In this document: piece by piece, positions 2,428-42,400 of the stretch
Layout of the letters: every line of letters starts with the position of its first letter
Position numbering within the stretch: the first letter of the stretch is position 1
DNA from: a virus
Lineage: Duplodnaviria > Caudoviricetes
Virus record (IMG/VR): IMGVR_UViG_3300035696_000034
Location: 1-64,000 of that record
DNA length: 64,000 nucleotides
Reading direction: 5' to 3' (one strand)
The notes under the pieces: model-generated
The model's database searches: none
Seen by the model: the letters and a program-made list of their open reading frames with translations, nothing else
What the model was told of the DNA's origin: nothing
Translations under genes and position numbers: made by a program

Positions 2428-2456
2428 TTGACATTTCCCGGGAATCAGCATATATT
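2428..2456 (+). promoter_or_regulatory. Sigma70-type promoter of attenuator/tRNA array A
   Basis: TTGACA(2428-33)-17 bp-TATATT(2451-56), followed by TAGTA as at promoters B and C. Confidence 0.8.
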
Positions 2457-2557
2457 TAGTACTGAATGACAGTCCGGCTCCCTTGTTCTTTGCCAGTGGC
2501 ACTGAACCTTTAAAGGCTTACCGTTGAGCCAGCCTGGTCAAATCAACGGAAAGTTTT

Positions 2558-2638
2558 ATGATCTTTGTCGTTAACCCTAATAATAATCAGCCACAACCGC
2601 GAATCATCGATTCGTTGGGCGGGGAGATTATTCACTAG
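2558..2638 (+). CDS. Attenuator leader peptide A (MIFVVNPNNNQPQPRIIDSLGGEIIH), Asn/Pro/Gln-sensing
   Basis: Codons 6-14 AAC CCT AAT AAT AAT CAG CCA CAA CCG match the downstream Asn/Pro/Gln tRNAs; overlaps antiterminator strand. Confidence 0.8.
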   Translation: MIFVVNPNNNQPQPRIIDSLGGEIIH

Positions 2639-2702
2639 GTAACGACCCCAAGAACACCAAAAGCCCGGCGAATCTGAAAAGACTCGCTGGGCTTTTTGTT
2701 TT
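2594..2702 (+). promoter_or_regulatory. Transcription attenuator A (protector 1:2, antiterminator 2:3, terminator 3:4)
   Basis: 2594-2605 pairs with 2609-2617; 2609-2620 GATTCGTTGGGC pairs with 2663-2674 GCCCGGCGAATC (12 bp, 2 G-U). Confidence 0.8.
2659..2702 (+). terminator. Intrinsic terminator of attenuator A
   Basis: AAAAGCCCGGCGAATC-TGAAAA-GACTCGCTGGGCTTTT plus TGTTTT. Confidence 0.9.
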
Positions 2703-2747
2703 GGTATTCAGATCTTTGACATATACGATTTTGTCAGAAGCACCTTT

Positions 2748-2823
2748 CTGGGCATGGTGTATCTCGGTTGCATCCGTGATTTGGGGTCACGTGGACTCAG
2801 TTCAAATCTGAGTGCCCAGACCA
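2748..2823 (+). tRNA. trnP: tRNA-Pro(TGG)
   Basis: Acceptor CTGGGCA/TGCCCAG, anticodon arm CGTGA-TTTGGGG-TCACG, TTCAAAT T-loop, encoded CCA. Confidence 0.9.
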
Positions 2824-2829
2824 TCTTAC

Positions 2830-2906
2830 TGGCAGGTAGCGAAGACCGGCATTTACGCGCCATACTGTTAATATGGAGTACGTCAGTTCGACTCTGACCC
2901 TGCCAG
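2830..2906 (+). tRNA. trnN: tRNA-Asn(GTT)
   Basis: U1-A72 acceptor TGGCAGG/CCTGCCA, CCATA-CTGTTAA-TATGG, G73; no encoded CCA. Confidence 0.9.
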
Positions 2907-2962
2907 CTTTATTAACAAAAGTTGTTAATCTATTCATATGCTTTCTTGTTTAAAGGAGGCAT

Positions 2963-3286
2963 ATGTCTAGTAATTCAGAGGCTGTTAAACGTTGGAGAAA
3001 AAAAACTAGAAAAAGAATTATAGAATCTTTAGGGGGAAAGTGTGCCTGTTGCGGGTATAATAAATGTTATGAAGCTATAGAAATACATCATATAAACTCA
3101 AATACCAAGAAATTTTCTATAAGTAGAATATGGACCGACTCTCTCTCCTGGGAGAAGATAGCGGAAGAAATTAGAAAGTGTGTATTAATTTGTAGTAATT
3201 GTAACAAAGAAATAAATATCGGTATATCTTCTCTGCCCCCCGTTTTACCCAAATTCAGCGAGAGAAACAGCTATGTTAAAAATTGA
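2963..3286 (+). CDS. HNH-like endonuclease
   Basis: LGGKCACCGY...EIHH...KCVLICSNC. Confidence 0.75.
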   Translation: MSSNSEAVKRWRKKTRKRIIESLGGKCACCGYNKCYEAIEIHHINSNTKKFSISRIWTDSLSWEKIAEEIRKCVLICSNCNKEINIGISSLPPVLPKFSERNSYVKN

Positions 3287-4031
3287 GCATAGCTATGTTG
3301 TTGTATGGGCTAAAAAGATAAAAGCTTTAAAATTAATTGGAGAAAAATGTTCTATTTGTGGAGAGAACAGATTATGGCTTTTGTTATTCCACCACACCGA
3401 CCCTACCGTAAAAGAATTTTCTATGGTCGAATTAAAAACATATCGGTGGTCTATTATAGAGAAAGAAATAAAAAAATGTGTAGTAGTCTGTTACAACTGT
3501 CACAAAGAACTTCACCATATAGATAAAAACACAAAATCCCAAATAAACAAAAAAGTGTGCTTAGATTTTTTAAATTCATACTCGTGTGGAATGTGTGGAT
3601 ACAGCAGCTGCAACGAAGCTTTAGATTTTCATCATACCAAGGACAAAAAATTTGCAATAGCAAACTACATAAATAGTACGGGATATTATAAAACAACTGA
3701 CGACCTAAGACCTGAATTAAAAGAAGAGCTAAAGAAATGCTCTATTCTATGCTCAAACTGTCATCATGATATTCATTTTAATAAAGAGAAATTAAACAAG
3801 TTTAAACCAACAATAGATCGCTATGACTACAAAGAGATGCCCAAACCTGTAGACAAAAATCTTCTTATTAAACTATATAAAAACAACGTAAAACAAATAG
3901 AAATAGCGAGAATACTAAACTGTACTAAATCTACAGTATGTGGAGTTTTAAAAAGAATAGCTGAGAAAAATCTGTTAAAATCAATTACTGAAATAAAAGA
4001 ATGTCCTTTTTCTACTTCTATTGGCGAGTAG
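3273..4031 (+). CDS. Double HNH-like endonuclease with C-terminal HTH
   Basis: Two CxxCG...FHH...CxNCH units; IARILNCTKSTV HTH; stop codon lies inside the next tRNA-Asn. Confidence 0.8.
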   Translation: MLKIEHSYVVVWAKKIKALKLIGEKCSICGENRLWLLLFHHTDPTVKEFSMVELKTYRWSIIEKEIKKCVVVCYNCHKELHHIDKNTKSQINKKVCLDFLNSYSCGMCGYSSCNEALDFHHTKDKKFAIANYINSTGYYKTTDDLRPELKEELKKCSILCSNCHHDIHFNKEKLNKFKPTIDRYDYKEMPKPVDKNLLIKLYKNNVKQIEIARILNCTKSTVCGVLKRIAEKNLLKSITEIKECPFSTSIGE

Positions 4032-4097
4032 CTGAGTTGTCACAGCGCTGCGCTGTTAACGCAGAGATCGCAGGTTAGAATCCTGTCTCGCCAGCCA
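4022..4097 (+). tRNA. trnN: tRNA-Asn(GTT), second copy
   Basis: TGGCGAG/CTCGCCA, CTGCG-CTGTTAA-CGCAG, G73, CCA. Confidence 0.88.
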
Positions 4098-4103
4098 TTT
4101 CAT

Positions 4104-4179
4104 TGGCTTGTAGCTTAATCAATCAGAGCGCCAGGCAATAGGCCTGGAGATGGGGGTGAAACACCTTTCAAGCCAGCCA
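4104..4179 (+). tRNA. Atypical tRNA-like gene (Asn-like body, loop CAATAGG, nominal anticodon ATA)
   Basis: Perfect acceptor TGGCTTG/CAAGCCA plus GCCA; non-canonical anticodon loop and T-loop TGAAACA. Confidence 0.55.
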
Positions 4180-4188
4180 TTTTTTACT

Positions 4189-4217
4189 TTGAAATCTATC
4201 GCGCAAGATAGTATATT
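4189..4217 (+). promoter_or_regulatory. Internal sigma70-type promoter
   Basis: TTGAAA-17 bp-TATATT; similar ...AGTATATTA motif at 11971-11999, 18049-18077, 26855-26883, 32655, 42555-42584. Confidence 0.65.
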
Positions 4218-4244
4218 ATAAGGACACCTCACCCAGGAGTCCCC

Positions 4245-4913
4245 ATGAAGCGACATCTGACCCTTTATTTGCACGAAAAAGACATTTATTCCGAAGAGAA
4301 CAAACGACTTGTTGTAGACCATCCTAGCGGATTTAAGGCCGTTTTGTTCAGCCCCGAATACGCCAAAATTTTTCACATCGAGAGCATAGTAGAAGTGCTG
4401 AAGATTGTAAGAGAATCTTTTACTGCTATTATATACCCAAGCGATCCTTCTGAAGACCCTGAAGCAATAGAGTATCTCCCTGATCTCAAAAAATTGCATG
4501 ATTTTTTCTCCATAGTAGATCCTAGGTTAATGGAGACTATTAGAGAGAAGGCAGCATGGTGGGATTTTTCCTACGGACACTATGACGAACAGAGAGACTA
4601 TTCAGAGAATACAAACAGACTACTTGACATATATAAAGGCCAGTCTTACTTCTTAGTGGAGGGACAGTTTAATCACATTTTTAATATTGAAGCTTTCAGA
4701 GAAAATCTGAAAAGTTTTAGGATAGAAAAAGTCGATTGCTGGGATTCTATGGGTATAATGTTTTTCCTGCAGGATCTCGAAGAAGGCACCTTTCTAAAAG
4801 CTTTCCAGAACCTCCTGGAGATCTCCAGGATAAACGAAGAAATAGCAGAGCAGAAAGATTATGCAGCACAAGAATACTGCCGACACAACGAACCTTGGAA
4901 ATTCATTAAATGA
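4245..4913 (+). CDS. Hypothetical protein
   Basis: 222-aa ORF, SD AGGAG. Confidence 0.7.
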   Translation: MKRHLTLYLHEKDIYSEENKRLVVDHPSGFKAVLFSPEYAKIFHIESIVEVLKIVRESFTAIIYPSDPSEDPEAIEYLPDLKKLHDFFSIVDPRLMETIREKAAWWDFSYGHYDEQRDYSENTNRLLDIYKGQSYFLVEGQFNHIFNIEAFRENLKSFRIEKVDCWDSMGIMFFLQDLEEGTFLKAFQNLLEISRINEEIAEQKDYAAQEYCRHNEPWKFIK

Positions 4914-5200
4914 TTTTTACTATAGGTCGTACAGAATCCTACGAAAAAAACTTCAAACTGCTCCCAAATCTGGAAAAATTGGGTAGGACTACAGATCCTG
5001 TCCTTTTAAAAGAGCTAGGCATAAAAGAGCCCTACTATGCCGGAGGATCGGTTTGGAAGACACAAAAAGAAGCTAAAAAGAACTGCCCCTCAGATTATTC
5101 GGTTTATGGGGTTGTGGCAGACTGGAAGAAAGACACTGTACCAACAGAAGACGGGGACTGGAACTATCTTTTAGTAACATCTAAATTGATTAAGATATAA
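4910..5200 (+). CDS. Conserved phage hypothetical protein
   Basis: ATGA overlap with previous gene; YxGGSVW...YGVxADW pattern. Confidence 0.65.
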   Translation: MIFTIGRTESYEKNFKLLPNLEKLGRTTDPVLLKELGIKEPYYAGGSVWKTQKEAKKNCPSDYSVYGVVADWKKDTVPTEDGDWNYLLVTSKLIKI

Positions 5201-5275
5201 CGGGGTGTGGCCAAATAGGTAAGGCCCTCGGCTTGGGACCGAGAAATTTTGTCAGTTCGAGTCTGACCGCCCCGA
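5201..5275 (+). tRNA. trnP: tRNA-Pro(TGG), second copy
   Basis: CGGGGTG/CGCCCCG, CTCGG-CTTGGGA-CCGAG. Confidence 0.9.
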
Positions 5276-5349
5276 TTTTTTAATAACCTCTTAATGCGTT
5301 TTGTACTTCAGAGCACATACAATATTACAAAGTAATTGGGAGGTACAAA

Positions 5350-6093
5350 ATGAATAAATACGGCCATTTAAAAGAAAAAGCTATCAAATTACGTGAAAAC
5401 GGGTATAGCTTACCAGATATCTGTAAGATGCTAAACAAAGGAAAAAGTACTGTTCACTACTGGATAAAAAACATACAAATTAAAAAAGTAAACGTTTTTT
5501 TAAAAAGAAGTAAGGCTAATCATAAAAACAACTGCATTGCTGCGGGACTAGCTAATAGGAAAAAATACAAAAGAGTCCATGAAAAATACAAAAAAGTAGC
5601 AGAGACTCTGTGGGACAGTGGATTAAAAAACGATGATAGTTTTAAATTATTTATCATGTACTACTCCTGTGAGGGCTACCGGCGCAGTACGTGGACTCTT
5701 GGCCTTTGTAACAGCGACCCTTCTTTAATTAAGTATTGTACTGTATGGTTTAAAATTTTAAATGTTAGAAATAAAAAAATAGAGTATAAAATTCAACTAC
5801 ATGTAGACCAAAATGAGAAAGATGTAAAAGATTATTGGAAAAAATTTTTAGGTATATCCAAAATACAGACAATACGAAAAAGTAACACTGGAAAAATGTC
5901 AGGAAGGAACTGGAACAGTAAGTATGGCGTTTTAAGTATTCTTTTCCATGATAGCTATATGAAAACCATGCTCGATACTTGGATTGATCTTTTTAAAAAA
6001 GAGTTAGTCTGTATAAAGCCAAGTTTTACTATAAAAAAAGAGGATTTACCTCCCGTGCCAGACCATACATCATATCTCAGAAACAAAGCATGA
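5350..6093 (+). CDS. HTH plus LAGLIDADG-like putative homing endonuclease
   Basis: N-terminal HTH (LRENGYSLPDICKMLNKGKSTV); YYSCEG...LCNSDPSLIK...YGVLSI pattern. Confidence 0.6.
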   Translation: MNKYGHLKEKAIKLRENGYSLPDICKMLNKGKSTVHYWIKNIQIKKVNVFLKRSKANHKNNCIAAGLANRKKYKRVHEKYKKVAETLWDSGLKNDDSFKLFIMYYSCEGYRRSTWTLGLCNSDPSLIKYCTVWFKILNVRNKKIEYKIQLHVDQNEKDVKDYWKKFLGISKIQTIRKSNTGKMSGRNWNSKYGVLSILFHDSYMKTMLDTWIDLFKKELVCIKPSFTIKKEDLPPVPDHTSYLRNKA

Positions 6094-6118
6094 AAAATAA
6101 CTAAATCAAACAGTTTAT

Positions 6119-6192
6119 TGGGATGTCATCCAATGGTAGGATTAGGGTCTTTGAAGCCCTCCATCAGTGTTCAACTCACTGCATCCCAGCCA
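6119..6192 (+). tRNA. trnQ: tRNA-Gln(TTG)
   Basis: TGGGATG/CATCCCA, AGGGT-CTTTGAA-GCCCT, GCCA end. Confidence 0.92.
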
Positions 6193-6210
6193 CTTAGAAA
6201 AAGGTGAATT

Positions 6211-6588
6211 ATGTTACCCAATGCTCAAAATGTAATACGCGATGTTTTAGTAGCTGTCATCGACAAATGTTACGCGCACAAACGAAACCACGAGTCTAGC
6301 TGTAAAGACTGCACCATGCTTGATACTGAACCTTTCAAGGTTTGCAAGCTAACATTTATCCCTGAGCACTGGGATGTAAATGAGATTATAAAGTGGCTTT
6401 TGGAACTCCCAAAAGATAAGACCTGTCACAAGTGCGATGATACCGGTTTTGTCCAATGGAACGATGGTATGGGCTGGCAGTCATACATCTGCGACTGCCC
6501 AGTAGGAAAAGCCTTAGAAAGTAATCCCCACAAAAAAGAGATTACAGATTGGTATCGATCACTCAGGAAAGAACCAGAGGACTTGTAA
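6211..6588 (+). CDS. Hypothetical Zn-finger protein
   Basis: CHKCDDTG...CDCPVG. Confidence 0.6.
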   Translation: MLPNAQNVIRDVLVAVIDKCYAHKRNHESSCKDCTMLDTEPFKVCKLTFIPEHWDVNEIIKWLLELPKDKTCHKCDDTGFVQWNDGMGWQSYICDCPVGKALESNPHKKEITDWYRSLRKEPEDL

Positions 6589-6589
6589 T

Positions 6590-7435
6590 ATGCCTCACAA
6601 AATAGTTCTTGACGCAGAATCGATCCTGGACAGAAAGTTCGACGTGCTGGATAAGGGCTTCGTTAGACTCATAGATTACATGGGTGACGACGCAAGGATA
6701 TGTGAAGCAGCCAGGGTATCGTACGCAGAAGGGACTAAGTCTATAAGCGATAACAAGGGTCTTATAAGCTATCTCATGCGGAACCAGCACACTTCCCCTT
6801 TTGAAAAAGTCATTTTTGAGTTCCACATAAAGCTTCCCATTTTTGTAGCCCGTCAGTTTATCAGGCATCGAACGGCCAGGGTCTCTGAGGTATCCGGAAG
6901 ATACTCTGTGATGAAAAATGAGTTCTATATACCAAGGAAAGAAAACATCAGAAAGCAGTCAAAGACAAATAAACAAGGTAGTGGTGATCGTTTGGATACT
7001 ATCGACGAACTTAATACTCTTTCTAATATAGAAGGAGCCACAAAAAGAGCTTATGAAGTGTATGAGTATAGCATTAATATGGGGATTTCCAGGGAGACAG
7101 CCAGGATCATTCTACCTCTGAATCTCTACACCGAGTGGTACTGGCAGATAGATCTTCATAATCTTATGAATTTTTTGAAGCTAAGATTAGATAGTCATGC
7201 CCAATATGAGATTCGGCAGTACGCAGAAATGATAGCTAACATAGTTGAACATGTGTGCCCTATGACTATGGATGCTTTTCTAGAGCACATATTGCATGGG
7301 GTACATTTTTCCCAGACACAAACGGAGAATCTTAAAAGGATTTTTATAGCCGCAAAATTAGAGCATGGAGCAGGATATTACGGTTTATCAGTAGATGACT
7401 ATGAGGATTTACAGAAAAAACTAGGTGTTGAGTAA
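6590..7435 (+). CDS. thyX: Flavin-dependent thymidylate synthase
   Basis: HTSPFE, RQFIRHRTARVSEVSGRY (RHRx7SxR motif), HAQYEIR. Confidence 0.97.
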   Translation: MPHKIVLDAESILDRKFDVLDKGFVRLIDYMGDDARICEAARVSYAEGTKSISDNKGLISYLMRNQHTSPFEKVIFEFHIKLPIFVARQFIRHRTARVSEVSGRYSVMKNEFYIPRKENIRKQSKTNKQGSGDRLDTIDELNTLSNIEGATKRAYEVYEYSINMGISRETARIILPLNLYTEWYWQIDLHNLMNFLKLRLDSHAQYEIRQYAEMIANIVEHVCPMTMDAFLEHILHGVHFSQTQTENLKRIFIAAKLEHGAGYYGLSVDDYEDLQKKLGVE

Positions 7436-7465
7436 CTAAAGTGCGGCTCAGTTTAGGGGGTCCTC

Positions 7466-7735
7466 ATGTCATATTGGTTTGTAGTTTACACGACTTACCA
7501 TGGTGACACCGGCAAAACAGATGTTAGTAATTGCATTACGAATCTTGCTGATCCGATGGCAGTGCAGCAAGCGCTTTCAGATGACGCAAATGCAGAGCTC
7601 ACAAATCGAGGATGCGACTATAGAGTATGGATAACCGTCGTTAATTGGTTACCCATAACGAAGGAGCAGTTTGATAAATACAAGGATCATAAATTACAAT
7701 TTTCGGTAGTCATCGGCGATGAACAAGAGCACTAA
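7466..7735 (+). CDS. Hypothetical protein
   Basis: ORF between thyX and tRNA-Pro; GGGGG SD. Confidence 0.55.
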   Translation: MSYWFVVYTTYHGDTGKTDVSNCITNLADPMAVQQALSDDANAELTNRGCDYRVWITVVNWLPITKEQFDKYKDHKLQFSVVIGDEQEH

Positions 7736-7742
7736 ATAATAA

Positions 7743-7816
7743 CGGAGCGTGGCCAAGCCTGGTATGGCACTGCGTTCGGGTCGCAGTTATCCCCGGTTCA
7801 AATCCGGGCGCTCCGA
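7743..7816 (+). tRNA. trnP: tRNA-Pro(CGG)
   Basis: CGGAGCG/CGCTCCG, CTGCG-TTCGGGT-CGCAG. Confidence 0.92.
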
Positions 7817-7834
7817 TTTTAAAAGGAGAATTAC

Positions 7835-8071
7835 ATGACAGCACGAGTTTATGTTGAGAAAACGATAACGATCATTAAGTCTTGTACTGAATGTGGGAAT
7901 CTCTCCATTACTTTAAATAATTGTACAAAGATGTCGAAGTTAGTGACAAGAAAACGAGATGTTGAAGGATATAAGATGAAAGAAACTTTGAAGACATTGA
8001 AAATCCCGATACCTAAATGGTGCCCGTTAAAAAAAGCCGCCAAAAGGATGAGAGAGAAACTAAAAGGTTAA
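7835..8071 (+). CDS. Hypothetical protein
   Basis: SD AAGGAG; CxxC...PKWCPL. Confidence 0.6.
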   Translation: MTARVYVEKTITIIKSCTECGNLSITLNNCTKMSKLVTRKRDVEGYKMKETLKTLKIPIPKWCPLKKAAKRMREKLKG

Positions 8072-8077
8072 ATATAA

Positions 8078-8151
8078 TGGGGTGTCGTCCAACGGTAGGA
8101 CTCTGGACTCTGGCTCCAGCTATTGGGATTCGAATTCTCACACCCCAGCCA
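8078..8151 (+). tRNA. trnQ: tRNA-Gln(CTG)
   Basis: TGGGGTG/CACCCCA, CTGGA-CTCTGGC-TCCAG, GCCA end. Confidence 0.92.
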
Positions 8152-32624: not shown

Positions 32625-32695
32625 TTTTTCTTTAGGAATCAATTGTCTAGATAGTATATTATTATAGACCCAAACCTCATTGAAAGGAGCACATA

Positions 32696-32719: not shown

Positions 32720-32744
32720 CGAGTACCGCTAGAAGGGATCCATT

Positions 32745-33017
32745 ATGTCTCATCCGAAGGATCGTCATGAACGCTTCCTCATCGGCAAAAAGCTTGGGGA
32801 AAAACGAGGGTACAGGTATTGGAATGGGTTTAAATTCATCCGGGACGAAGAGCAGAGGAAAGAAGATCTCAGAATAGCCTCTTTTAAAAGACGAGATACC
32901 ACCAAACTTTGTTCTTGCATGATGTGTGGAAATCCTCGCAGGATGTCCTCAAAAAAAGATGTTAAGCTTACTATGCAAGAAAGAAAACTTCCAGATTGGA
33001 AGAAGGAGGCAGAATGA
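32745..33017 (+). CDS. Small basic phage protein (CSCxxCGNPRR-type)
   Basis: KRRDTTKLCSCMMCGNPRR. Confidence 0.7.
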   Translation: MSHPKDRHERFLIGKKLGEKRGYRYWNGFKFIRDEEQRKEDLRIASFKRRDTTKLCSCMMCGNPRRMSSKKDVKLTMQERKLPDWKKEAE

Positions 33018-33496
33018 CTCGAGCTGCAGCAGGTCTTAAAAAACATTATTGGAATTGCGTAACAAAAGTATGGATGGCTGGTAATACTAAACTATCCGCA
33101 GAGATGGTTTGTGCAGTTACCGGAACTCCTGATAAAAAATTGAATTTTAATAAAGTACGGATGCTACTGAAAGAAGCAGAAGACTATATAAAAAATCTTT
33201 AACTAAAGGAGAACATATGCCTCAATTATCCGGAGACCTAAAGTCATATAGTGGAATAACTTTGATGGAACGAACAAAAAGTATGCTTGAAAAAGCCACA
33301 AAGCTAGGATTTACAATTCTCCCTTCCGTTTACAGAGATAAAACAACCAGTGAAAAGATCTATAATGTCTTCAAATGCTACAACGGTAAAGAAGAAGCCT
33401 ATGCTCTTATAGTCAAAGACTGGATAAAAGGATTCCCGCGAATCGATTCTAAAGGGAATATCAAAGCAAAGTGATTTTATACGGGAAAGGTTTCTC

Positions 33497-34036
33497 ATGT
33501 ACGTAATGGTTGATATCGAAGCGGATGGTCCGATCCCAGGGGATTATTCGATGATCTCGTTCGGGGCGGTTTTGATCGACAGATCACCTTTAGCTATATC
33601 GACTAACAAGGAAAAATTCGATACTACCTTTTTTGGGAAGCTCCATCCCATATCTGATCAATTCGTTCCGGAAGCTCTGGCAGTTTCTGGTTATACCAGA
33701 GAAGAGACTATGACATTCCCCGATCCCCTCAAGGTTGTGCAGAATTTTGATCTATGGCTGCACGAGCATAATCGGGAGCAGCCAAAGTTTATTTCCGATA
33801 ATAACGGATTCGACTGGATGTTTATGTGTTGGTATTTTTGGCATTTTCTCCATAAGAATCCATTCGGTCACAGTTCTACAAATTTAGGGTCATTTTATAA
33901 GGGCATCGAGAGGAGTTTTAAAAGAAATTTTAAACATCTTCGGAAGACCAGGCACTCGCATAATCCTATGGAAGATTCAATCGGTAATGCAGAGGCATTT
34001 TGCACGATTATTCAGAACAATCATGTCGAGTATTAA
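33497..34036 (+). CDS. DEDDh 3'-5' exoribonuclease (Rv2179c-like)
   Basis: MVDIEADGP, NGFDWMF, HNPMEDS. Confidence 0.85.
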   Translation: MYVMVDIEADGPIPGDYSMISFGAVLIDRSPLAISTNKEKFDTTFFGKLHPISDQFVPEALAVSGYTREETMTFPDPLKVVQNFDLWLHEHNREQPKFISDNNGFDWMFMCWYFWHFLHKNPFGHSSTNLGSFYKGIERSFKRNFKHLRKTRHSHNPMEDSIGNAEAFCTIIQNNHVEY

Positions 34037-34108
34037 GGGGCTGTAGATTAGTGGGAAATCGGGACACCGGCAGTGTTCAGAGCGTCAGTTCGACCCTGAC
34101 CAGCTCCA
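34037..34108 (+). tRNA. trnA: tRNA-Ala(GGC)
   Basis: GGGGCTG/CAGCTCC with G3:U70, loop CCGGCAG. Confidence 0.85.
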
Positions 34109-34774
34109 CTTTTAAGGATCATTGTGAATAAAGAAGAGTTCTACGAATACATGGACGATCAGAATAACTATGAGAGGGTCGTCCTGGGAATCGACATAGC
34201 AGTTATGCATGTTGGATTTGAAGCTGTCTACGATGCGAGCATACAGTGCGGCAGAGCTAAAGATGTTGAGGCTATGCAGTATATCATAAATAACCATATA
34301 AACACAAACATGCTTGCAAAAATATCGGGGCTGCATTGAAATACCCAAAGAACTTTATCAACTATTGGGACGAAGGTCAGAAAATCAGGCATCTGAACTG
34401 GAATCTAAAAAGAAACAGCACGCAGATTGTTAAAAGGCTGGGCATTGTTAGATGGTATAAAAAAGGATTCTGGAAGAGATATTTCAGGAAAAAGATGACG
34501 AGAGAGGCACTATGGGAATGATAAAAGTCGGTGATTACTTTAAGACCAAAACTGGAGCTTTAGGTGTCGTTGTAATCCTCATAGGAGGAGGCACTCCTCG
34601 GGAACTCTACGGGGACATGGCTCCAGGAGCCGAGAGCGGCTATGAGTATTTCACACTGTACGTTGACAAAAATCTAAGATACGGAAGATCGAAGGTACAG
34701 CTGATGCCCCTCAATAGATATGCTATCGGGGATGTCACAAAGATCAGCAAACGAGAATACAATCAATTGTTGAG

Positions 34775-35044
34775 GTGAATATGCTCCTTCCATCATCAAC
34801 AACTGTAATGCGGATACCGTCTTACTTTCTTAGGGTAAAAAAGACTGGTATGATTAGTATAGCTTATGAATGTCATCCAGATGGCATCCACCTTCACTTA
34901 GAGAGAGATTTACACGCATACACCTTGGAAGATCTGGAACCTGCAACTGAAGAAGAATATCAAGATCAAATAAGACGCATTAAAAATACTCACACTGAAA
35001 AAGAATACAACGAACTTTTAGAAAATTTTAAAAAAAGACTGTAA
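34775..35044 (+). CDS. Hypothetical protein (paralog of 36489-36743)
   Basis: MLLP...IPSY.L.VKKTG...DGIHL.LERDL shared with 36489. Confidence 0.7.
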   Translation: MNMLLPSSTTVMRIPSYFLRVKKTGMISIAYECHPDGIHLHLERDLHAYTLEDLEPATEEEYQDQIRRIKNTHTEKEYNELLENFKKRL

Positions 35045-35442
35045 CTCAGCCGGAATAGAAATGAACCTCTACAAATTTGGTGTTTTATTGTTTTGGATTG
35101 GTGTAGTATTAGGCATCGCGGTGATTATCGGGAGCATATGGTGGCCACAATATACAATAACAACTTTAGGTGGAATTGTCGTATGCATAGCAACATCCTC
35201 AATGGTTTCTGGAGTTTTTGTACTAATAATGTTAGAGGGATGATTAAATGGCACTAACAGCAGGACTCGCAAAAGTGATGGGTTGGAAGCTAGATCACCC
35301 CAACGGTCTTGATGACACGCCTTGGGTGATGCCTGTAGAATACAGAAAAGTCCCGACATTAGCAGATGTTATTAAACATGGCTTTGAGTTCTCAAGAAAA
35401 ATTGAGCGGGATCTTAAAAAATTGAAGAGAAAGAAATAGTTT

Positions 35443-35468
35443 GGGGCTGTAGCACAGTTGGGAATGTG
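35443..35468 (+). pseudogene. 5' remnant of a tRNA-Ala gene
   Basis: GGGGCTGTAGCACAGTTGGGAATGTG (acceptor 5' strand plus D-arm), then breaks off before the DUF4145 gene. Confidence 0.65.
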
Positions 35469-35497
35469 TTTATAGGTATATATAAAGGAGTTTTTGT

Positions 35498-36091
35498 ATG
35501 AGCATGATTTCAATTGATTCAGAGTGGATTTGTGGAAACTCAATTCCAAGTGAATCATTCGTTTGTGGTTTTTGTAATGTAAGAATTTCTTCGGCAAAAG
35601 GATTCAAATTGTTTTCAAAACAAATACGCGGTCATTCAAGATCTAAAACAAGAGGCGGTATATACATCTGCGATAATTGCAACGGCCCAACTTTTATTTC
35701 AGAAGCCGGGCATCAATATCCATTACCTGCTTTTGGGAGTTCTGTTAAAAATGTACCCCAAAACATAAACACACTTTATGAAGAAGCAAGAAACGGCACC
35801 AAAGCAAAAAATTATACGAGCTCAGTTTTATTGTGTCGAAAAATATTAATGCACATTGCAGTAGAGAAGGGTGCTGAACCAGGTTTACCCTTTATTGGGT
35901 ATGTGAATTTTCTAGAAGAAAATCATTACGTTCCGCCTGATAGTAGAAGTTGGGTTGATCGTATCAGAGTAAGAAGTAATGAGGCTAACCATGAAATTGA
36001 AATTATGACTCAAACAGACGCAGAGAATCTAATTACTTTTATTGAAATCATACTAAGGTTTCTGTATGAAACACCTAGTTTGATTAGATGA
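35498..36091 (+). CDS. DUF4145-domain protein
   Basis: CGFC...CDNCNGPT; LYEEAR...SSVLLCRKILM...IRVRSNEANHE. Confidence 0.8.
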   Translation: MSMISIDSEWICGNSIPSESFVCGFCNVRISSAKGFKLFSKQIRGHSRSKTRGGIYICDNCNGPTFISEAGHQYPLPAFGSSVKNVPQNINTLYEEARNGTKAKNYTSSVLLCRKILMHIAVEKGAEPGLPFIGYVNFLEENHYVPPDSRSWVDRIRVRSNEANHEIEIMTQTDAENLITFIEIILRFLYETPSLIR

Positions 36092-36097
36092 AAATTT

Positions 36098-36168
36098 GGG
36101 GCTATCGTCCAGTGGGAAGACTCTTGCCTTGCACGCAAGAAACGGCAGTTCGAATCTGCCTAGCTCCA
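36098..36168 (+). tRNA. trnA: tRNA-Ala(TGC)
   Basis: GGGGCTA/TAGCTCC with G3:U70, CTTGC-CTTGCAC-GCAAG. Confidence 0.92.
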
Positions 36169-36195
36169 TTTAAATATTTATCAGAAAGGAACCTT

Positions 36196-36471
36196 ATGGG
36201 ATCTAAATTTACCGTACCTCTTGAAAGAATTCCCTGGCCGGAAGAAATCAGCCGATGGGTTATTGCAATGATGCTTAAGAACAAAACGGAAAAAGTAGAA
36301 ATGACCTATAGGGAAGTTGATGAAGCTTCTAAAAATTATGAGTTAGTTGTAGCGGACAAACTTCTTCCAGATTCAGGTCTAAATGAAAAAACGGATCTTG
36401 GCAAAGCCGAAGTAATATTTTCATTAAGAAAAGTGGAAAAAGAATTAAGAAAACCTTTTTGGGAAGTTTAG
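36196..36471 (+). CDS. Hypothetical protein
   Basis: SD AAAGGA; the track ORF start lies inside tRNA-Ala and was corrected. Confidence 0.55.
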   Translation: MGSKFTVPLERIPWPEEISRWVIAMMLKNKTEKVEMTYREVDEASKNYELVVADKLLPDSGLNEKTDLGKAEVIFSLRKVEKELRKPFWEV

Positions 36472-36488
36472 CTTAAAAGGAGAGAACC

Positions 36489-36743
36489 ATGCTTCTTCCA
36501 GGATCATTAATGACTGTAATGCAAATACCATCTTATTATCTTAAGGTAAAAAAGACTGGTAGGATTGGTATAGCTGATGAACCCCACCACGACGGTATCC
36601 ATCTTCGTTTAGAAAGAGATTTATATTGGTATTCGCTGAATGAACTAGAACCTTCAACTGAAGAAACTTATCTAGACCAAATAAAACTCATCAAAAGTGC
36701 GCGTACAGATGAAGAGTATAAAGAAGTTCTTAAGGGGATATAG
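36489..36743 (+). CDS. Hypothetical protein (paralog of 34775-35044)
   Basis: See paralog; SD AAGGAG. Confidence 0.7.
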   Translation: MLLPGSLMTVMQIPSYYLKVKKTGRIGIADEPHHDGIHLRLERDLYWYSLNELEPSTEETYLDQIKLIKSARTDEEYKEVLKGI

Positions 36744-36791
36744 CTCAGCTGGGAGAGCACTACGTTCGCATCGTTCCCGATCATCTCCACC
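36734..36791 (+). pseudogene. tRNA-Ala(CGC) pseudogene with variable/T-arm deletion
   Basis: GGGGATATAGCTCAGCTGGGAGAGCACTACG-TTCGCAT-CGT then jumps to TCCCGATCATCTCCACCA; 58 nt. Confidence 0.8.
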
Positions 36792-36811
36792 AAAATCGCA
36801 AAGGAATATTT

Positions 36812-37423
36812 ATGAAATCAAATTTTCCCACAGTTCCTGATTTAATTGCAAACGCAAAAGCTATTAAGAAGTTTAAAAGAGTGATACACGAAAAATTAAA
36901 TGTAGGTGAGATGCCGATATATGATATAAAAGCAGGTGACAAAGCTTTAAGTTACGATCCTTATAATCAAGGTTGGTATTTTGCCCCAACACTTAATGCT
37001 GAAATTGGTGACGATAATAACAGAGACGAGCGTTATACTAATACAGACCGAAGATGCTACACGTGTGGGTCTTTTGCAATTGATGATCTTCAGGCATTTG
37101 AAGATTGTTGTAAAAATCTTGAGGATTGCAGTGGTAGAGAATTATTAATGATTACGTGGGGCGACAGATATGACGAATTTGCAATGATAATTAAAGACAT
37201 ATATGAGAACAACCCGAAATATATCCTTACATCTTTAGAGCAGCGCTACAAAATAGCAGTCAATGCTTTAATCAATATTGTTAAAGGTGGATGTTTTTAT
37301 CCCAACAAGAAAGAAGCTAAAACAGCCCTACAAAGACTTATTTATAAAACAGCGGATGAAGATAAGTCTATAACTCTTGGTCCTGATTTTAAAAAAGAAC
37401 TCATGAAAATATTAGCAGAATAA
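36812..37423 (+). CDS. Hypothetical protein
   Basis: 203-aa ORF, SD AAGGA. Confidence 0.6.
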   Translation: MKSNFPTVPDLIANAKAIKKFKRVIHEKLNVGEMPIYDIKAGDKALSYDPYNQGWYFAPTLNAEIGDDNNRDERYTNTDRRCYTCGSFAIDDLQAFEDCCKNLEDCSGRELLMITWGDRYDEFAMIIKDIYENNPKYILTSLEQRYKIAVNALINIVKGGCFYPNKKEAKTALQRLIYKTADEDKSITLGPDFKKELMKILAE

Positions 37424-38108
37424 AATAGGAATTATATATTTTGCTACCCAGGAGATAAATCTATGAAAAATTTATTATTTTTCATCAAGCATCCTTTATT
37501 CAGTATAAAACAACGAATACTTTTCATATGGTATTGGAAAATAAATGGTAGAAAAACCTATGAAGAACTTAAAAAACATAAATAAAATATTCTTACGCAT
37601 AATCGGCTGGTGTCCATACTGCCGTACGATTTTTCATTATCCCAAAAAAAGGCGTATGAATACCCAATATGCCAAAGAAGAATCCAATTGGGTTACTTGT
37701 TGCAAACCTCAATTTGATGAAATCCAAGAATACTGGAAAGAACGTTGGGCTGATTACTGGTCAGGTTGTCTATAGAAGGACAGTCTTATGAAATCTTTAA
37801 TCATGCGAGAACATGATGCTATGAAAAATAAAATGGGTCTTCGCTATTATAAAGATCCAGAAGGGGGCTATTCGAATTCCCCTATAACGCCGCACTCAGA
37901 GGTAAGCCTGGGCTATGATTGGACTATCACGGTTGAATCTTTGGGCGTGAAACACAAATATAAACTTACCAGTAAATCTGGTATGATATCTACCGCTGAA
38001 ATAATTGCAGTCCTTTGTAAAAATACTGATTTAAAAATATTATTTACAGCGGAAGATAAGGCAAAATTCGAGCGTGCTTGGAAAAGAAAGTTTGGAAAAT
38101 AATTTTTA

Positions 38109-38218
38109 GCTCGGGTGGCGAAATTGGTATACGCTGGGGTCTTAACGGGTAGAAGATTTTATTTCTATCCTTTAAACCCTTGGGGAAACCCATGAGGATT
38201 CGAGTTCCTCCCTGAGCA
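38109..38218 (+). tRNA. trnL: tRNA-Leu(TAA) with a 28-nt hairpin insertion in the anticodon loop
   Basis: GCTCGGG/CCTGAGC, GGGGT-CTTAA[38146-38173]AA-ACCCT, Leu-type D and variable arms. Confidence 0.75.
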
Positions 38219-38828
38219 CTTTAAAATTTTTTATTTAAAGGTATAAAATGTTAAGCCAAAAATTTAAAGACCAGCTTGCTGCTGTTGCTAAAAAATATAG
38301 AAAAAAGCGTATAGATTGTTGTGCAGCATGCTCCCTTGTTAAAGATAAGCAACATTGTAAATACTGTATCATGGAAAAAATCGATATGTTTTGCGGTCGT
38401 CCAGTTGTCAAAGTATACGAACCCGCTCATTCTGTCTGGATGGTTCGTGAAACTCCTATTACTTATGAAGATGTGCTTAGGCTCTATTCTGCACTAGAAC
38501 TTTCAAAAGACATTTCTGATATAATTTATGATGATGATTGGGACAACGGCTATAAAAGCTGTTAAACATTCTACAGGTAAAAACATTAAATATGTCATAT
38601 GAACTTGGTCATTGCAATAAATGTGGTTGGAAGGGTGACATAGACAAAGCCGACCAAAGGACTGAGGATGAGCTTTTATATCTCTACTGTCCAAAAGGTT
38701 GCGACGAAGAAGTAGCCCCTCGGAGACCTGTGAATGCTTCCAAGGATTATTTCGTGAACATGTTTCAGAATCTATTTAAAGAGAAAAAAGACGGATATGA
38801 ATTTGATCCTGATGGGAAAAAATAATAC

Positions 38829-38922
38829 GGCGAGATGCCAGAGCCTGGTTTATCGGGCTAGTCTTGAAAACTAGTGTGGAGTTAAAAGGCCACCGCAGGT
38901 TCAAATCCTGCTCTCGCCGCCA
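38829..38922 (+). tRNA. trnS: tRNA-Ser(TGA)
   Basis: GGCGAGA/TCTCGCC, CTAGT-CTTGAAA-ACTAG, GCCA. Confidence 0.94.
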
Positions 38923-38930
38923 ATATGAAG

Positions 38931-39018
38931 GGAAGAGTGTCCGAGTGGTTTAAGGAGCACGCCTCGAAAGCGTGTGTGCAGAAATGTACCCTGGGTTCAA
39001 ATCCCAGCTCTTCCGCCA
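38931..39018 (+). tRNA. trnS: tRNA-Ser(CGA)
   Basis: GGAAGAG/CTCTTCC, CACGC-CTCGAAA-GCGTG, GCCA. Confidence 0.95.
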
Positions 39019-39035
39019 TCAAAGAAAAGTCCTTT

Positions 39036-39185
39036 ATGCCGAACGAATTAAAACGGTGTCCTTGTTGTGGTGGTGAAGCCCAGCGTTCATCCGATGGAGG
39101 ATGTAGAAATTTTACTATTTTTTGTACCTCATGTGGATTAGACATCGTCGATTATGGCTCCCGTGAATATGGAAAAGAGTATTGA
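39036..39185 (+). CDS. Lar-like Zn-ribbon protein, probably truncated by the adjacent element
   Basis: ELKRCPCCGGEA...CTSCG. Confidence 0.55.
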   Translation: MPNELKRCPCCGGEAQRSSDGGCRNFTIFCTSCGLDIVDYGSREYGKEY

Positions 39186-40365
39186 TTATATTTGAGCTGA
39201 AGAGTTTATTATCATAGATTTGTAAAAATTATGAAACTCATCCGTTCTTCCAAATGTAGCTTAAAATTCGCTACAACCTCCAAACTCTCTAAGCTTCGTA
39301 AGGTGCTTTCTGAATGTGGCCGAGTCTGTAACATCTTTATTGATTACTTTTGGAAAAGTGGCACTCCCTCTAAATCTGAACTCTTAAAAGAAATAGTAGA
39401 CATCCCACAAGGCACTTGGCTGACCGCTCGGCTTCGTAAAATAGCCGCCCGGGAAGCTATAGACATGATTAATGCTGTGAGAGAGAGGTGGAAGGATAAA
39501 CCTTGGAAGATCTCTATGCCCATACATAAGGGCAAGAGAGCTTACGTCTCCTGTACCATAGCGGATCTTCAGGAAAAAGGTGGTTCTAAGGAATTTGATG
39601 CCTGGCTTCATTTGTCCTCTGTCGGGAAAGAGACAATCCTGGACCTTCCTATTAAATTTCATAAACATTATAATAAATTAGCTCTTCAAGGAAAACGCTT
39701 GAATTCCTACATCCTTACAAATAAATATGTCCAGTTTTCATTTGAAATAGATGTAGGTGAGAAGAAAAATGGCGCTAACGCTATAGGCATAGATACTGGG
39801 ATCAAAGCCCTTGCCTCTTTAAATAACGGCGCTCAATTCGGTTTAGATATTGAAACCCTTATCGAGCGTATCAAACGCTGTCAGCATGGCTCTAATGGTC
39901 AGAAACAAGCCCGGAAAGCCTTTAAACAGAGGATAGATGAAGCCGTCAAAGAGGTAGTTAAACATTTTGAGCATATAGATTTGGTCGTGGTAGAAGCATT
40001 AAAAAACATGAATTACAAGAGTAAACTCAAACGTCGCTTGAGTAAAAATATGCGGCGTTCTATCGGCACTTGGGCGTATAGGTACTGGTTAAAAAGGCTG
40101 GAGCAAGCCTGTGAGACTAACCGTGTTAGTTTTCGCACCGTGGCTCCTTTTTATACCAGCCAAACATGTCCGAGCTGTGGTCATGTCGATAGGGGGAATA
40201 GAGTAGGACAAATGTTCCGGTGCCTAGTATGTGGTCACACAGGTAACGCAGATATTATTGCAGCCAGGAACATATTGACTCGATTTCTTACGGGACTCTA
40301 CGGTGCCCGTTACAAACCATACGAAACTATATTTAATATTTCATAGTTTCAGAGGAACGGTGCTC
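39186..40365 (+). mobile_element. TnpB-only (IS1341-like) IS200/IS605 element; ends approximate
   Basis: tnpB without tnpA; TTGAT at 39182-86 resembles a TAM. Confidence 0.6.
39231..40346 (+). CDS. tnpB: RNA-guided endonuclease TnpB
   Basis: IGIDTG (D), VVVEAL (E), TSQTCPSCG...CLVCG..GNADIIAARNI (D); triad intact. Confidence 0.92.
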   Translation: MKLIRSSKCSLKFATTSKLSKLRKVLSECGRVCNIFIDYFWKSGTPSKSELLKEIVDIPQGTWLTARLRKIAAREAIDMINAVRERWKDKPWKISMPIHKGKRAYVSCTIADLQEKGGSKEFDAWLHLSSVGKETILDLPIKFHKHYNKLALQGKRLNSYILTNKYVQFSFEIDVGEKKNGANAIGIDTGIKALASLNNGAQFGLDIETLIERIKRCQHGSNGQKQARKAFKQRIDEAVKEVVKHFEHIDLVVVEALKNMNYKSKLKRRLSKNMRRSIGTWAYRYWLKRLEQACETNRVSFRTVAPFYTSQTCPSCGHVDRGNRVGQMFRCLVCGHTGNADIIAARNILTRFLTGLYGARYKPYETIFNIS

Positions 40366-40434
40366 CTTCTAATGATTGACTAACCAAAACCGAATAATTA
40401 ACTAATAAGTTTCTCCTAAAAAAGAGGAGAAACC

Positions 40435-40716
40435 ATGTATAAACAGCAGGTCACAATACTGAACAAAAATGGGTTGCACGCTCGTCCAGCGGCTGAGATA
40501 GTACAGGAAGCCTCAAAATACGAGTCTGAGATAAAAATCATTAACATAAAAGAAAGTATTACAGTCAGTGCAAAAGTAGTTATGGAGCTGTTGTTACTCG
40601 GGGCTTTTTGTGGGACGGAGCTTCTTATAGAGGCGACAGGCAAAGATGAAGAGGAAGCCGTCAAAAACATAGCCAACAGAATAGCGGGATTCTCATCAAT
40701 GGATGAAGGAGATTAA
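40435..40716 (+). CDS. ptsH: HPr-family phosphocarrier protein (Ser46 position is Val)
   Basis: NGLHARPAA with His15; SAKVVMELL aligns with canonical AKS motif; GKDEEEAV. Confidence 0.92.
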   Translation: MYKQQVTILNKNGLHARPAAEIVQEASKYESEIKIINIKESITVSAKVVMELLLLGAFCGTELLIEATGKDEEEAVKNIANRIAGFSSMDEGD

Positions 40717-40926
40717 TATGAACAAACAATCTTTAGAAGAAAAGGTAAACAATATCCTTCGTAATCATACAATCAGCGTCCTTAATAACAATGTTGTTAA
40801 TGTCCCTAAAAAAGGACCGGTGTCGGAAAGTTTTATCAATGAGATTAAAAAAAGCAGAGAGAACATCTTAGAAGAAGAAAAACGTACTTCCAAGAAAATA
40901 CTAGCACTTCTAAAGACAAGGCAATC

Positions 40927-41784
40927 ATGAACTCTGTTAAAACTAAAAAGAGCTCTTACACGGACAATTCGACCGAAGAGAAGATCCTGACTCAATATAT
41001 GGAAGATGTTGGGAGATACAAACCCTTAAGTTCGGTAGAAGAGCACGAATTGGCAAAGCGTATACGCAAAGGGGACAAGAAAGCAGCGGAGAAATTAATC
41101 AGGGCGAATCTTACTTTTGTGATAACGGTAGTCAACAATTACAAAAATCAAGGATTGCCGCTTTTGGATCTTATTAATATCGGTAACATGGGACTTATAC
41201 GAGCAGCCAAAAAATTTGATGAAAGAAAAAACTATAAATTCATATCCTATGCAGTGTGGTGGATACGTCAGGCTGTCTTAGGAGCCCTAGCGGATCAGTC
41301 TAGAGCTCTGAGGATCCCTATGCATTGTGTTTCTCAGATCGTGAGTATGAGAAAAATAAAAGAAAAGATTGAGAGAGAAAAACAAAGAGAAGCTTATCCA
41401 GAAGAGATTGAGGCAGCACTAGCTCTTAAGCGCCCTACAGCCTTGAATAAATTGATATCGATAGATACTCCTCATTTATCTCTCGATACCTCCTCTTTTG
41501 ATAACGGAGCGCCTTTGGTGGAGCTTATGGAAGGTGAGAGCGACTCTCCGGAAGATTTAGTTTTAAAATTGTCAGAAAAGGAAGATATTAAGAGAAAGCT
41601 AGGTTGTCTGACAACGATGGAAAAAAAAGTTATCTGTGAATACTACGGTATAGATAAAGAGGACGCCAAGACTCTTGCAGATATTGGTAAAAAGTTTAGA
41701 CTCACGAGAGAGCGCGTGCGTCAGATTAGAGAGCAAGCTCTAAAAAAGCTACGAGCCTGTTACAAAAACAGTTGCAGGGAGTAA
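40927..41784 (+). CDS. Sigma70-family RNA polymerase sigma factor (RpoD/RpoS-like)
   Basis: LIRANLTFVI, DLINIGNMGLIRAAKKFD...FISYAVWWIRQAV, LTRERVRQIREQALKKL. Confidence 0.95.
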   Translation: MNSVKTKKSSYTDNSTEEKILTQYMEDVGRYKPLSSVEEHELAKRIRKGDKKAAEKLIRANLTFVITVVNNYKNQGLPLLDLINIGNMGLIRAAKKFDERKNYKFISYAVWWIRQAVLGALADQSRALRIPMHCVSQIVSMRKIKEKIEREKQREAYPEEIEAALALKRPTALNKLISIDTPHLSLDTSSFDNGAPLVELMEGESDSPEDLVLKLSEKEDIKRKLGCLTTMEKKVICEYYGIDKEDAKTLADIGKKFRLTRERVRQIREQALKKLRACYKNSCRE

Positions 41785-42010
41785 ACATAATATGGAAGAC
41801 TCTAATGATTTTAGTGTCCCCGGTATGATGAGGGGTGATTTCTCTGAAGAATTCCTAAAAAAGCTCGGTTTTAAAAAAGCAGTCATAGACGAAAGCTGTT
41901 TATTCGATGGCAAAGACATCCACAGAGTAATGGCGCTTCCTGATGGTCCAGTCGGTTTGAAGTTTTTCGAAAGATACATAAAGAATCAAGAAGAGCATCC
42001 AGAAATATAA

Positions 42011-42093
42011 GCCCAGGTGGTGAAATTGGTATACACGCAGGTTTCAAAAACCTGTGGGAAACCATGAGCGTTCAACTCGCTCCCTGGGCACCA
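42011..42093 (+). tRNA. trnL: tRNA-Leu(CAA)
   Basis: GCCCAGG/CCTGGGC, CAGGT-TTCAAAA-ACCTG, ACCA. Confidence 0.94.
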
Positions 42094-42310
42094 CTTTAAA
42101 CTGAAGAGTAAAAACATGCTCAAAATTATTAACCGTCCACTCCCACAGGCTTGCTGTAGCTCGTGTGGCGGTAAAATTGGTGACCCCTTTCACGATGATA
42201 ACTGCCTAGCGTATCAGAGTAGCCAGCACCCTATTAGAGAAATTTTATTTTCATTTTTACGTGTAAGTATATTAAGTTCAGTACTAACATTTATTACAGT
42301 GTTGTTAAAC

Positions 42311-42400
42311 GGAGGCGTACGCTAACTGGTAAGCGACAACATTGGAAATGTTGCGTCCTTTAAAATGGACTTGGGCGTTCGAGCCGCTCCGCCTCCGCCA
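42311..42400 (+). tRNA. trnS: tRNA-Ser(GGA)
   Basis: GGAGGCG/CGCCTCC, CAACA-TTGGAAA-TGTTG, GCCA. Confidence 0.94.

Follow-up and report, generated by a model that had tools for sequence, protein, structure and literature searches.

The window analysed here comprises 64,000 nucleotides (nt) of DNA and represents the first 64 kb of the 72.5-kb IMG/VR virus record IMGVR_UViG_3300035696_000034 (Duplodnaviria; Caudoviricetes). CheckV estimates the completeness of this record at about 29%, and it is therefore a fragment of a giant phage. ARAGORN identified 31 transfer RNA (tRNA) genes in the window, all of them on the + strand, which form three amino acid-sorted groups (arrays A, B and C) and one lone amber-suppressor tRNA (anticodon CTA). 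An earlier inspection of the DNA from its letters alone, hereafter called the sequence-only reading, had claimed that each of the three arrays is preceded by a promoter, a short open reading frame (ORF) and a strong terminator, and that these units are leader-peptide attenuators of the tRNA genes. All three units were found (2428-2702, 16735-16961 and 28687-28929). The units and their arrays contain the following elements:

2428..2461, + strand: promoter of leader A; -35 box TTGACA (2428-2433), 17-nt spacer, -10 box TATATT (2451-2456), motif TATATTTAGTA (2451-2461)
2558..2638, + strand: leader A ORF; 26 codons, MIFVVNPNNNQPQPRIIDSLGGEIIH; control block codons 6-14 (2573-2599)
2661..2702, + strand: intrinsic terminator A; stem 2661-2694, then a T run; free energy (dG) -26.6, z score -6.1
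2748..8151, + strand: array A (ARAGORN); Pro TGG, Asn GTT, Asn GTT, Pro TGG, Gln TTG, Pro CGG, Gln CTG
16735..16768, + strand: promoter of leader B; TTGCAT, 17-nt spacer, TG-extended -10 box TATATT (16758-16763), motif TATATTTAGTA
16798..16893, + strand: leader B ORF; 31 codons, MTSRTIMTIISMAIISDFDSMDDFMSQREFF; Shine-Dalgarno motif AGGAG; control block codons 6-25 (16813-16872)
16919..16961, + strand: intrinsic terminator B, adjoining the first tRNA; dG -23, z score -5.3
16964..18035, + strand: array B (ARAGORN), closely packed; three tRNAs with anticodon CAT, Ile GAT, Phe GAA, Ser GCT, two Asp GTC
28687..28720, + strand: promoter of leader C; TTGACA, 17-nt spacer, TG-extended TATATT (28710-28715), motif TATATTTAGTA
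28744..28869, + strand: leader C ORF; 41 codons, MDRKISITLTSSALCLCATAQTWAGLRSHLYLTGRKRRGLE; control block codons 6-33 (28759-28842)
28888..28929, + strand: intrinsic terminator C; 5' arm AAACCCCGCC; dG -26.1, z score -7.0
29791..42400, + strand: array C; Cys, Leu TAG/GAG/CAG, Tyr, His, atypical Trp(CCA), Thr TGT, atypical Thr(GGT)/'Leu AAG', Ala GGC/TGC, Ser TGA/CGA, Leu CAA, Ser GGA

The promoters of leaders A (2428-2456) and C (28687-28715) agree with the consensus at 11 of 12 positions, and they were the top + strand sigma-70-like matches in their regions. The 11-mer TATATTTAGTA occurs three times in the 72.5-kb record, and all three copies are situated at the three leaders. Leader B is preceded by a strong Shine-Dalgarno motif (dG -7.4); its ORF had been recognized by the sequence-only reading, and the start of this ORF had to be corrected to 16798. 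Past the end of each leader ORF, at a distance of 22-25 nt, a hairpin with a T run was found. The three hairpins have free energies of -23 to -27 kcal/mol and z scores of -5.3 to -7.0, and none of 200 shuffled sequences was as stable.

The three arrays differ in their density. The tRNA genes of array A alternate with ORFs (HTH proteins, ThyX), and those of array C are interleaved with genes for HNH endonucleases, a methyltransferase, an exonuclease, TnpB and a sigma-70 factor. The first tRNA of array C is separated from terminator C by an HNH gene (28986-29441) and an ORF of 59 codons. Two genes of this array are atypical. The tRNA-Trp-like gene at 32349-32430 has the loop CUCCAAA with a CCA anticodon, lacks the D arm (4 nt take the place of 15 model positions), has a variable region enlarged by an insertion of 20 nt and was misnamed Ser(ACT) by ARAGORN. 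It is homologous to a normal tRNA-Trp of the related phage record G002 and could represent either a pseudogene or a tRNA of unusual form. The gene at 32551-32624 (74 nt) was called Leu(AAG) by ARAGORN; its Rfam alignment is best as Thr(GGT), with C33 where U is normal, and it is homologous to the Thr(GGT) gene of G002. Judged from these alignments, Thr(GGT) with C33 is more likely than Leu(AAG). The sequence-only reading had counted five Leu tRNAs and one Trp tRNA in array C; the fifth Leu tRNA is probably to be given up and the Trp gene needs qualification, while the other groups that it named were confirmed.

Next, the codons of the leaders were compared with the tRNAs of the arrays. Leader A contains nine Asn/Pro/Gln codons in an unbroken row (Asn AAC/AAT, Pro CCT/CCA/CCG, Gln CAG/CAA). 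In leader B, 20 of 30 codons specify Met, Ile, Phe, Ser(AGY) or Asp, and in leader C 25 of 40 codons belong to the set of its own array, including six of six Leu codons, four of four TCN codons and both Cys codons. For each distinct anticodon of an array a cognate codon is present in the preceding leader (5/5 for A, 5/5 for B and 14/14 for C). When random ORFs were sampled from the codon usage of the phage itself, the probability of full anticodon coverage together with at least the observed enrichment was 2.3e-4 for A, <5e-6 for B and 1e-5 for C, in agreement with the claim that the leader codon sets match their own arrays. No enrichment was found when leaders were compared with the arrays of other leaders, and the true pairing of leaders and arrays was the best of the 6 permutations in the window. 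The serine codons are divided by codon box, as had been pointed out before: the control block of leader B contains AGT, AGT and AGC, and leader C contains only TCT, TCG, TCC and TCA.

It had also been claimed that the 5' strand of each terminator can pair with the end of the leader ORF. This was true for three of three units. The ORF 3' end (region 2, the 5' strand of a putative antiterminator) is a strong partner of the terminator 5' arm (region 3) in all three leaders, with duplex free energies of -19 to -22 kcal/mol and P <= 0.006 versus shuffled sequences:

2608..2621, + strand: region 2 of leader A; located within the ORF, 15-28 nt upstream of its stop codon; pairs with 2661-2675; 2:3 duplex dG -22.3, P=0.002 versus shuffles
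16874..16891, + strand: region 2 of leader B; 2:3 duplex dG -20.3, P=0.006
28852..28862, + strand: region 2 of leader C; GGCGGGGTTT, a perfect complement of the terminator 5' arm AAACCCCGCC

In addition, the leaders were folded with a ribosome footprint that was masked codon by codon, on transcripts cut at a point at which the 3' arm of the terminator does not yet exist. For leaders B and C, the 5' arm was paired with a probability of about 0.8-0.9 when the ribosome was absent or upstream, and this value dropped to 0.3-0.6 once the A site had reached codon 24 (B) or codon 34 (C). For leader A, a 12-bp antiterminator (2609-2620 with 2663-2674) formed when the ribosome was placed at control codon 10 or 13, and the arm-paired probability peaked for ribosomes at codons 7-14; with no ribosome on leader A, region 2 was tied up in local structure. 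In full-length minimum-free-energy folds, upstream partners are possible for region 2 of all three leaders.

To extend the comparison beyond the window, relatives were retrieved from viral and metagenome contigs by means of homologues of the R2K ATP-grasp gene (19039-19884), a neighbour of array B; for three of the records, longer portions were included. The ATP-grasp genes of the relatives are 33-58% identical to the window copy, and the loci are thus related and not assembly duplicates of one sequence. The pooled set comprised 20 units from 9 records, i.e. the three units of the window and 17 units from 8 related uncultured phage records. The relatives share the layout, in which promoter, Shine-Dalgarno motif and short ORF are followed by terminator and array. 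The tRNAs are grouped into arrays in other ways, and the leaders track the arrays down to the level of codon boxes. The 258-kb record G002 has the gene order of the window and contains five units, and further examples come from four other records:

G002 unit 1: leader MIATTTIRIEGREGEGEGTIMS; array Glu x2, Gly x2, CAT, Thr CGT, Arg CCT/TCT
G002 unit 2: leader MIVKKVKVVVKRRK...; array Lys x2, Arg ACG/CCG, Val
G002 unit 3: homologue of leader A; array Asn/Gln/Pro
G002 unit 4: homologue of leader B; array Phe/Asp/Ser GCT
G002 unit 5: leader C-like ORF; array Cys/Leu/Tyr/Ala/Trp/His/Thr/Ser
L090: leader MSVIIRKPVLVVKPQPVQKPGL; array Lys/Val/Pro/Gln
L073: leader QTTLTTTIMIGTGATGTAGG, TTG-initiated form QTTLTTTIMIGTGATGTAGGSS; array Thr/Met/Ile/Ala/Gly
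L091: leader with Trp among its codons; array Thr/Gly/Ile/Ala/Asp/Glu/Lys/Trp/Val
G004: leader without Leu, Ser and Tyr codons; array of 38 tRNAs without Leu, Ser and Tyr

In G002 the arginine codons are split in the same manner as serine is in the window: the leader of the array with tRNA-Arg CCT/TCT contains AGG/AGA, and that of the array with tRNA-Arg ACG/CCG contains CGC/CGT. The true pairing of leaders and arrays in G002 was the best of 120 permutations. Over all 20 units, 116 of 119 tRNA classes of an array have a codon in their own leader (Fisher 9e-28), and 362 of 621 codons are own-class codons versus 180 +/- 22 with permuted arrays, a value that was not reached in any of 20000 permutations; because homologous units are not independent, these pooled P values overstate the evidence. 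The permutations within one genome and the re-sorted arrays are unaffected by kinship among the units. In all 8 units tested the match to the array peaks in the reading frame of the ORF itself, and it is limited to the central block. The co-variation of leader codons and array tRNAs in related phages had been set beforehand as a test that could refute the sequence-only reading; in the 17 further units the leaders follow the re-sorted arrays.

The signals for translation and termination also recur in the pooled set. Shine-Dalgarno motifs with dG <= -4 precede 16 of the 20 leader starts versus 18% of control ATGs. The distance between the stop codon and the terminator is 20-32 nt in 18 of the 20 units. 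Region 2 is located at the ORF end in 19/20 units, and pairing of the ORF 3' end with the terminator arm beats shuffled sequences in 19/20. When own terminator arms were compared with the arms of other units, the mean free energies were -18.1 vs -12.1 kcal/mol, and the own arm was better in 20/20 cases (Wilcoxon 1.9e-6).

Based on these sequence data, we propose that the units act as ribosome-mediated (leader-peptide) transcription attenuators, each of which controls the entry of RNA polymerase into a phage tRNA operon, and we assign a probability of about 0.8 to this reading, which is supported at the level of comparative genomics. RNA polymerase, presumably the host enzyme, would initiate at the strong sigma-70-type promoter, and a ribosome would translate the short leader, the central block of which would be a roster of the codons read by the downstream tRNAs. 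A ribosome that reaches the last codons would cover region 2, so that the terminator hairpin 20-30 nt downstream could form and transcription would stop. If the ribosome stalled at any codon of the roster, because the respective tRNA is scarce, uncharged or cleaved, region 2 would be free to pair with the terminator 5' arm, and the polymerase would continue into the tRNA genes. The leader would then operate as a multivalent OR-gate with direct negative feedback, since the tRNA products would relieve the very stall that induces them. We infer not only translation of the leaders but also this direction of the switch, the read-through and its trigger, which could be starvation or anticodon nucleases. 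A single codon would be enough for stalling when a tRNA species is lost outright, and a roster would therefore suit the detection of tRNA loss; the one to few codons per tRNA species seem to fit outright loss better than graded starvation. Such a loss could follow host shut-off or an attack by anticodon nucleases.

Several observations weigh against this proposal or restrict its reach. The Shine-Dalgarno motifs of leaders A (dG -3.5) and C (dG -2.8) are weak. The 5' untranslated region of leader A (2462-2557) is structured and 96 nt long, compared with about 20 nt in the G002 homologue; it contains a 15-codon ORF (2466-2513) and a hairpin (2515-2554) that takes in the weak Shine-Dalgarno motif, and it may represent an extra control layer on leader translation. 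Co-transcriptional folding, which the sequence-only reading had put forward as a check, agrees with the proposal for leaders B and C, in which the arm is freed as the ribosome nears the end, and for leader A only as far as the antiterminator at codons 10 and 13 is concerned: with a ribosome at the stop codon of leader A the fold still permits the antiterminator, because region 2 is just beyond the assumed footprint. For a classical 1:2 anti-antiterminator, the best duplex was no better than shuffled sequences in most of the 20 units. An untranslated leader would thus default to read-through, and we take the design to be a two-state switch that is set by the ribosome at the leader end. The match of codons and tRNAs is also not perfect. 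Leader C contains two TTA codons, yet no Leu(TAA) tRNA was found in the window; leader 4 of G002 has kept Ile and Met codons, although its array lacks Ile and Met tRNAs; and leader a of the relative G001 contains seven Asn codons with no tRNA-Asn nearby. Furthermore, arrays A and C extend over 5 and 13 kb with protein genes among the tRNAs, and the first tRNA of array C follows terminator C at a distance of about 0.9 kb that includes the HNH gene. A candidate internal promoter (TTGAAA, 17-nt spacer, TATATT) with a match at 10 of 12 positions is located at 4189-4217 in array A and could restart transcription there. The caveat of the sequence-only reading that internal promoters may limit the reach of attenuator control consequently stands.

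Three other explanations were weighed. Short ORFs in AT-rich intergenic DNA might resemble the arrays by chance. When the 755 small ORFs of the record were ranked by whole-ORF enrichment for the respective codon sets, leader A was only 4th and leader C was outside the top six for their own sets, as a coincidence would predict; these low ranks are due to antisense frames rich in Leu, Ser and Cys. The joint probabilities of 2.3e-4 to <5e-6 per leader, the fixed position of the ORFs between a unique promoter motif and a terminator, and the repetition of the pattern in 17 further units make chance a negligible explanation. The units could also be independent small genes or small RNAs with terminators of their own, which encode small phage proteins or release leader transcripts acting in trans, while the tRNAs are transcribed from other promoters. 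A short ORF between a strong promoter and a strong terminator does amount to a complete transcription unit, array A contains a candidate promoter, and, according to the abstract of PMC6614838, the leader transcript of the S. meliloti trp attenuator works in trans as a small RNA. However, the order of amino acids is not conserved among homologous leader peptides while their composition is, the ORF tail co-varies with the terminator arm, no comparable + strand promoter was detected in the stretches that separate leaders B and C from their first tRNAs, and terminator B directly adjoins the first tRNA. We therefore consider independent units to be very improbable.

The third explanation retains translated leaders that gate terminators, but assumes that they respond mainly to any global slowing or arrest of translation, caused by shut-off or by toxins or antibiotics that target the ribosome, rather than to single tRNAs, with the roster codons as a secondary refinement. 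It would be in line with the lack of a significant 1:2 hairpin, which makes the antiterminator the default fold unless a ribosome reaches the ORF end, and with the trn operon of Anabaena, the only described regulated tRNA array, which answers general translational stress (PMC8421152, PMC10272220). A general sensor of this kind would not need a codon content that tracks the arrays down to codon boxes and shifts with their re-sorting, and we regard it as unlikely, albeit less so than the other two. Codon-resolved attenuation is thus the reading that we prefer.

Leader-peptide attenuators are well known from enterobacteria, e.g. trpL, hisL, pheL, leuL, thrL, the multivalent leader of ilvGMEDA and pheM in front of pheST. 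The units of the window resemble them in having a promoter, a short ORF rich in control codons (translated in enterobacteria and predicted to be translated here), an intrinsic terminator and a competing hairpin, in which the 5' arm of the terminator serves as one strand and which a ribosome at the leader end precludes; some of the enterobacterial leaders are likewise multivalent (thr, ilv). They differ from them in several respects. The regulated genes are tRNA genes, i.e. the sensed molecules themselves, and reside in a phage; the rosters comprise between 3 and 16 amino-acid classes, each represented by 1-7 codons, and lack long stretches in which one codon is repeated; the leaders distinguish codon boxes (Ser AGY/TCN, Arg AGR/CGN); and the conserved 1:2 hairpin lacks statistical support. 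T-box riboswitches resemble the phage units in that they choose in cis between terminator and antiterminator according to the state of a particular tRNA. In contrast to the phage leaders, they bind uncharged tRNA directly, are untranslated and control genes for aminoacyl-tRNA synthetases and amino-acid genes, and a scan of the whole window at Rfam gathering thresholds yielded tRNA matches only and no T-box.

The closest published case is the trn operon of Anabaena sp. PCC 7120, a long tRNA array that is induced by translational stress and has the repressor TrcR (PMC8421152, PMC10272220). Unlike in the phage units, control is exerted at the promoter, where direct repeats are bound by the ribbon-helix-helix protein TrcR; the words attenuator, leader and terminator are absent from the main text of PMC8421152. 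Phage tRNAs evade tRNA-cleaving defences such as retron Ec78 PtuAB and others, as described in the abstract of PMC11555353. Such a function provides a motive for carrying and timing spare tRNAs, and neither a sensor nor an attenuator is mentioned in that abstract. Leader-peptide attenuation belongs to textbook knowledge, and we found it described for amino-acid biosynthesis and synthetase genes and not for tRNA genes. The statement of the sequence-only reading that no leader-peptide attenuation of tRNA genes has been described agrees with our literature search, which found no such account; most subscription journals were outside its reach, so that absence is not proven.

The tRNA region of T5 and the unrelated 22-tRNA contig L011 (IMGVR_UViG_3300046000_007986), which was reached with ThyX as bait, served as negative controls: the former contained no leader/terminator/array unit, and the latter had a plain promoter and no leader unit. 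The idea that small T5 ORFs might be leaders of this kind was not borne out. Homologues of the ATP-grasp gene in cultured or GenBank phages had at most 29% identity, and the two that were examined, LR756500.1 and Salicola phage SCTP-2, had no tRNAs near the gene. Near and distant nucleotide searches with leader B and array B against cultured phages revealed no relative and only generic tRNA matches, an exact scan of IMG/VR for the promoter pattern found one unrelated contig without tRNAs, and the metallophosphatase and the sigma factor yielded no relatives as baits, while the putative homing endonuclease (1412-2242) gave distant matches only.

Additional features were noted in and near the arrays. 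Genes for HNH endonucleases and HTH-domain proteins are situated among the tRNAs at 28986-29441, 30112-31008 and 42604-43239 and also at 3273-4031 and 5350-6093; they are likely homing endonucleases, and the homologous G002 unit has no HNH gene at the position of 28986-29441. Array C contains a TnpB-like gene (39231-40346; Cas12f1-like TNB, OrfB_IS605) and a gene for a complete sigma-70-family factor with regions 1.2, 2, 3 and 4 (40927-41784). Directly 3' of array B there is a fragment-sized ORF of 186 amino acids (18083-18643) with AAA_21/AAA_15 similarity (AbiEii/OLD-like ATPase). In array A, the stretch 4103-4217 contains a degenerate tRNA-like sequence (GGCTTGTAGCTTAA...CAAGCCAGCCA), which was called neither by ARAGORN nor by Rfam, comes right after a tRNA-Asn gene and is followed by the promoter-like site at 4189-4217. 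A hairpin at 4141-4185 was rejected as a terminator (z = -0.8). The pattern TTGACAT-N16-AAGCAC had been noticed by eye in units A and C, downstream of the terminator and ahead of the first tRNA; it was not encountered again and was dropped. The amber-suppressor tRNA gene (11868-11943) has no leader of its own and directly adjoins the end of ORF 11383-11907. The relatives G001, G002 and L056 likewise carry a CTA tRNA, which in the first two of them lies between arrays. When the standard code is applied, the long ORFs of the window remain open. In contig L011, a tmRNA gene (6638-7040) lies within the 22-tRNA array.

The window also encodes a set of enzymes for tRNA repair and maturation, consisting of an RNA ligase (PF09414; 45838-46893, + strand), a polynucleotide kinase-phosphatase (PNKP; AAA_33 + HAD_PNKP; 46897-47790, + strand) and a CCA-adding enzyme (PolyA_pol + HD; 53996-55762, - strand), which fits a phage that faces tRNA damage. 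If the attenuation proposed here is true, the sensor would read how a set of codons is decoded and would have the tRNAs for these codons as its output, the most direct feedback that can be designed. It would explain the sorting of the tRNA genes of these phages by amino acid, would allow missing arrays to be predicted from leaders and leaders from arrays, and would provide sensors, both compact and portable, with which the decoding of chosen codons could be monitored. The question of when and why phages bring tRNAs of their own into play against host shut-off and tRNA-cleaving defences would become testable. We consider it fairly probable that a clade of uncultured giant phages apportions the genetic code among a small number of tRNA regulons, each of them under a codon-resolved leader that tests decoding in real time and turns on the spare copies if any tRNA fails; together, leaders and arrays would constitute a detector and a countermeasure for host tRNA loss or anticodon-nuclease defence, beside the repair enzymes Rnl, PNKP and the CCA-adding enzyme.

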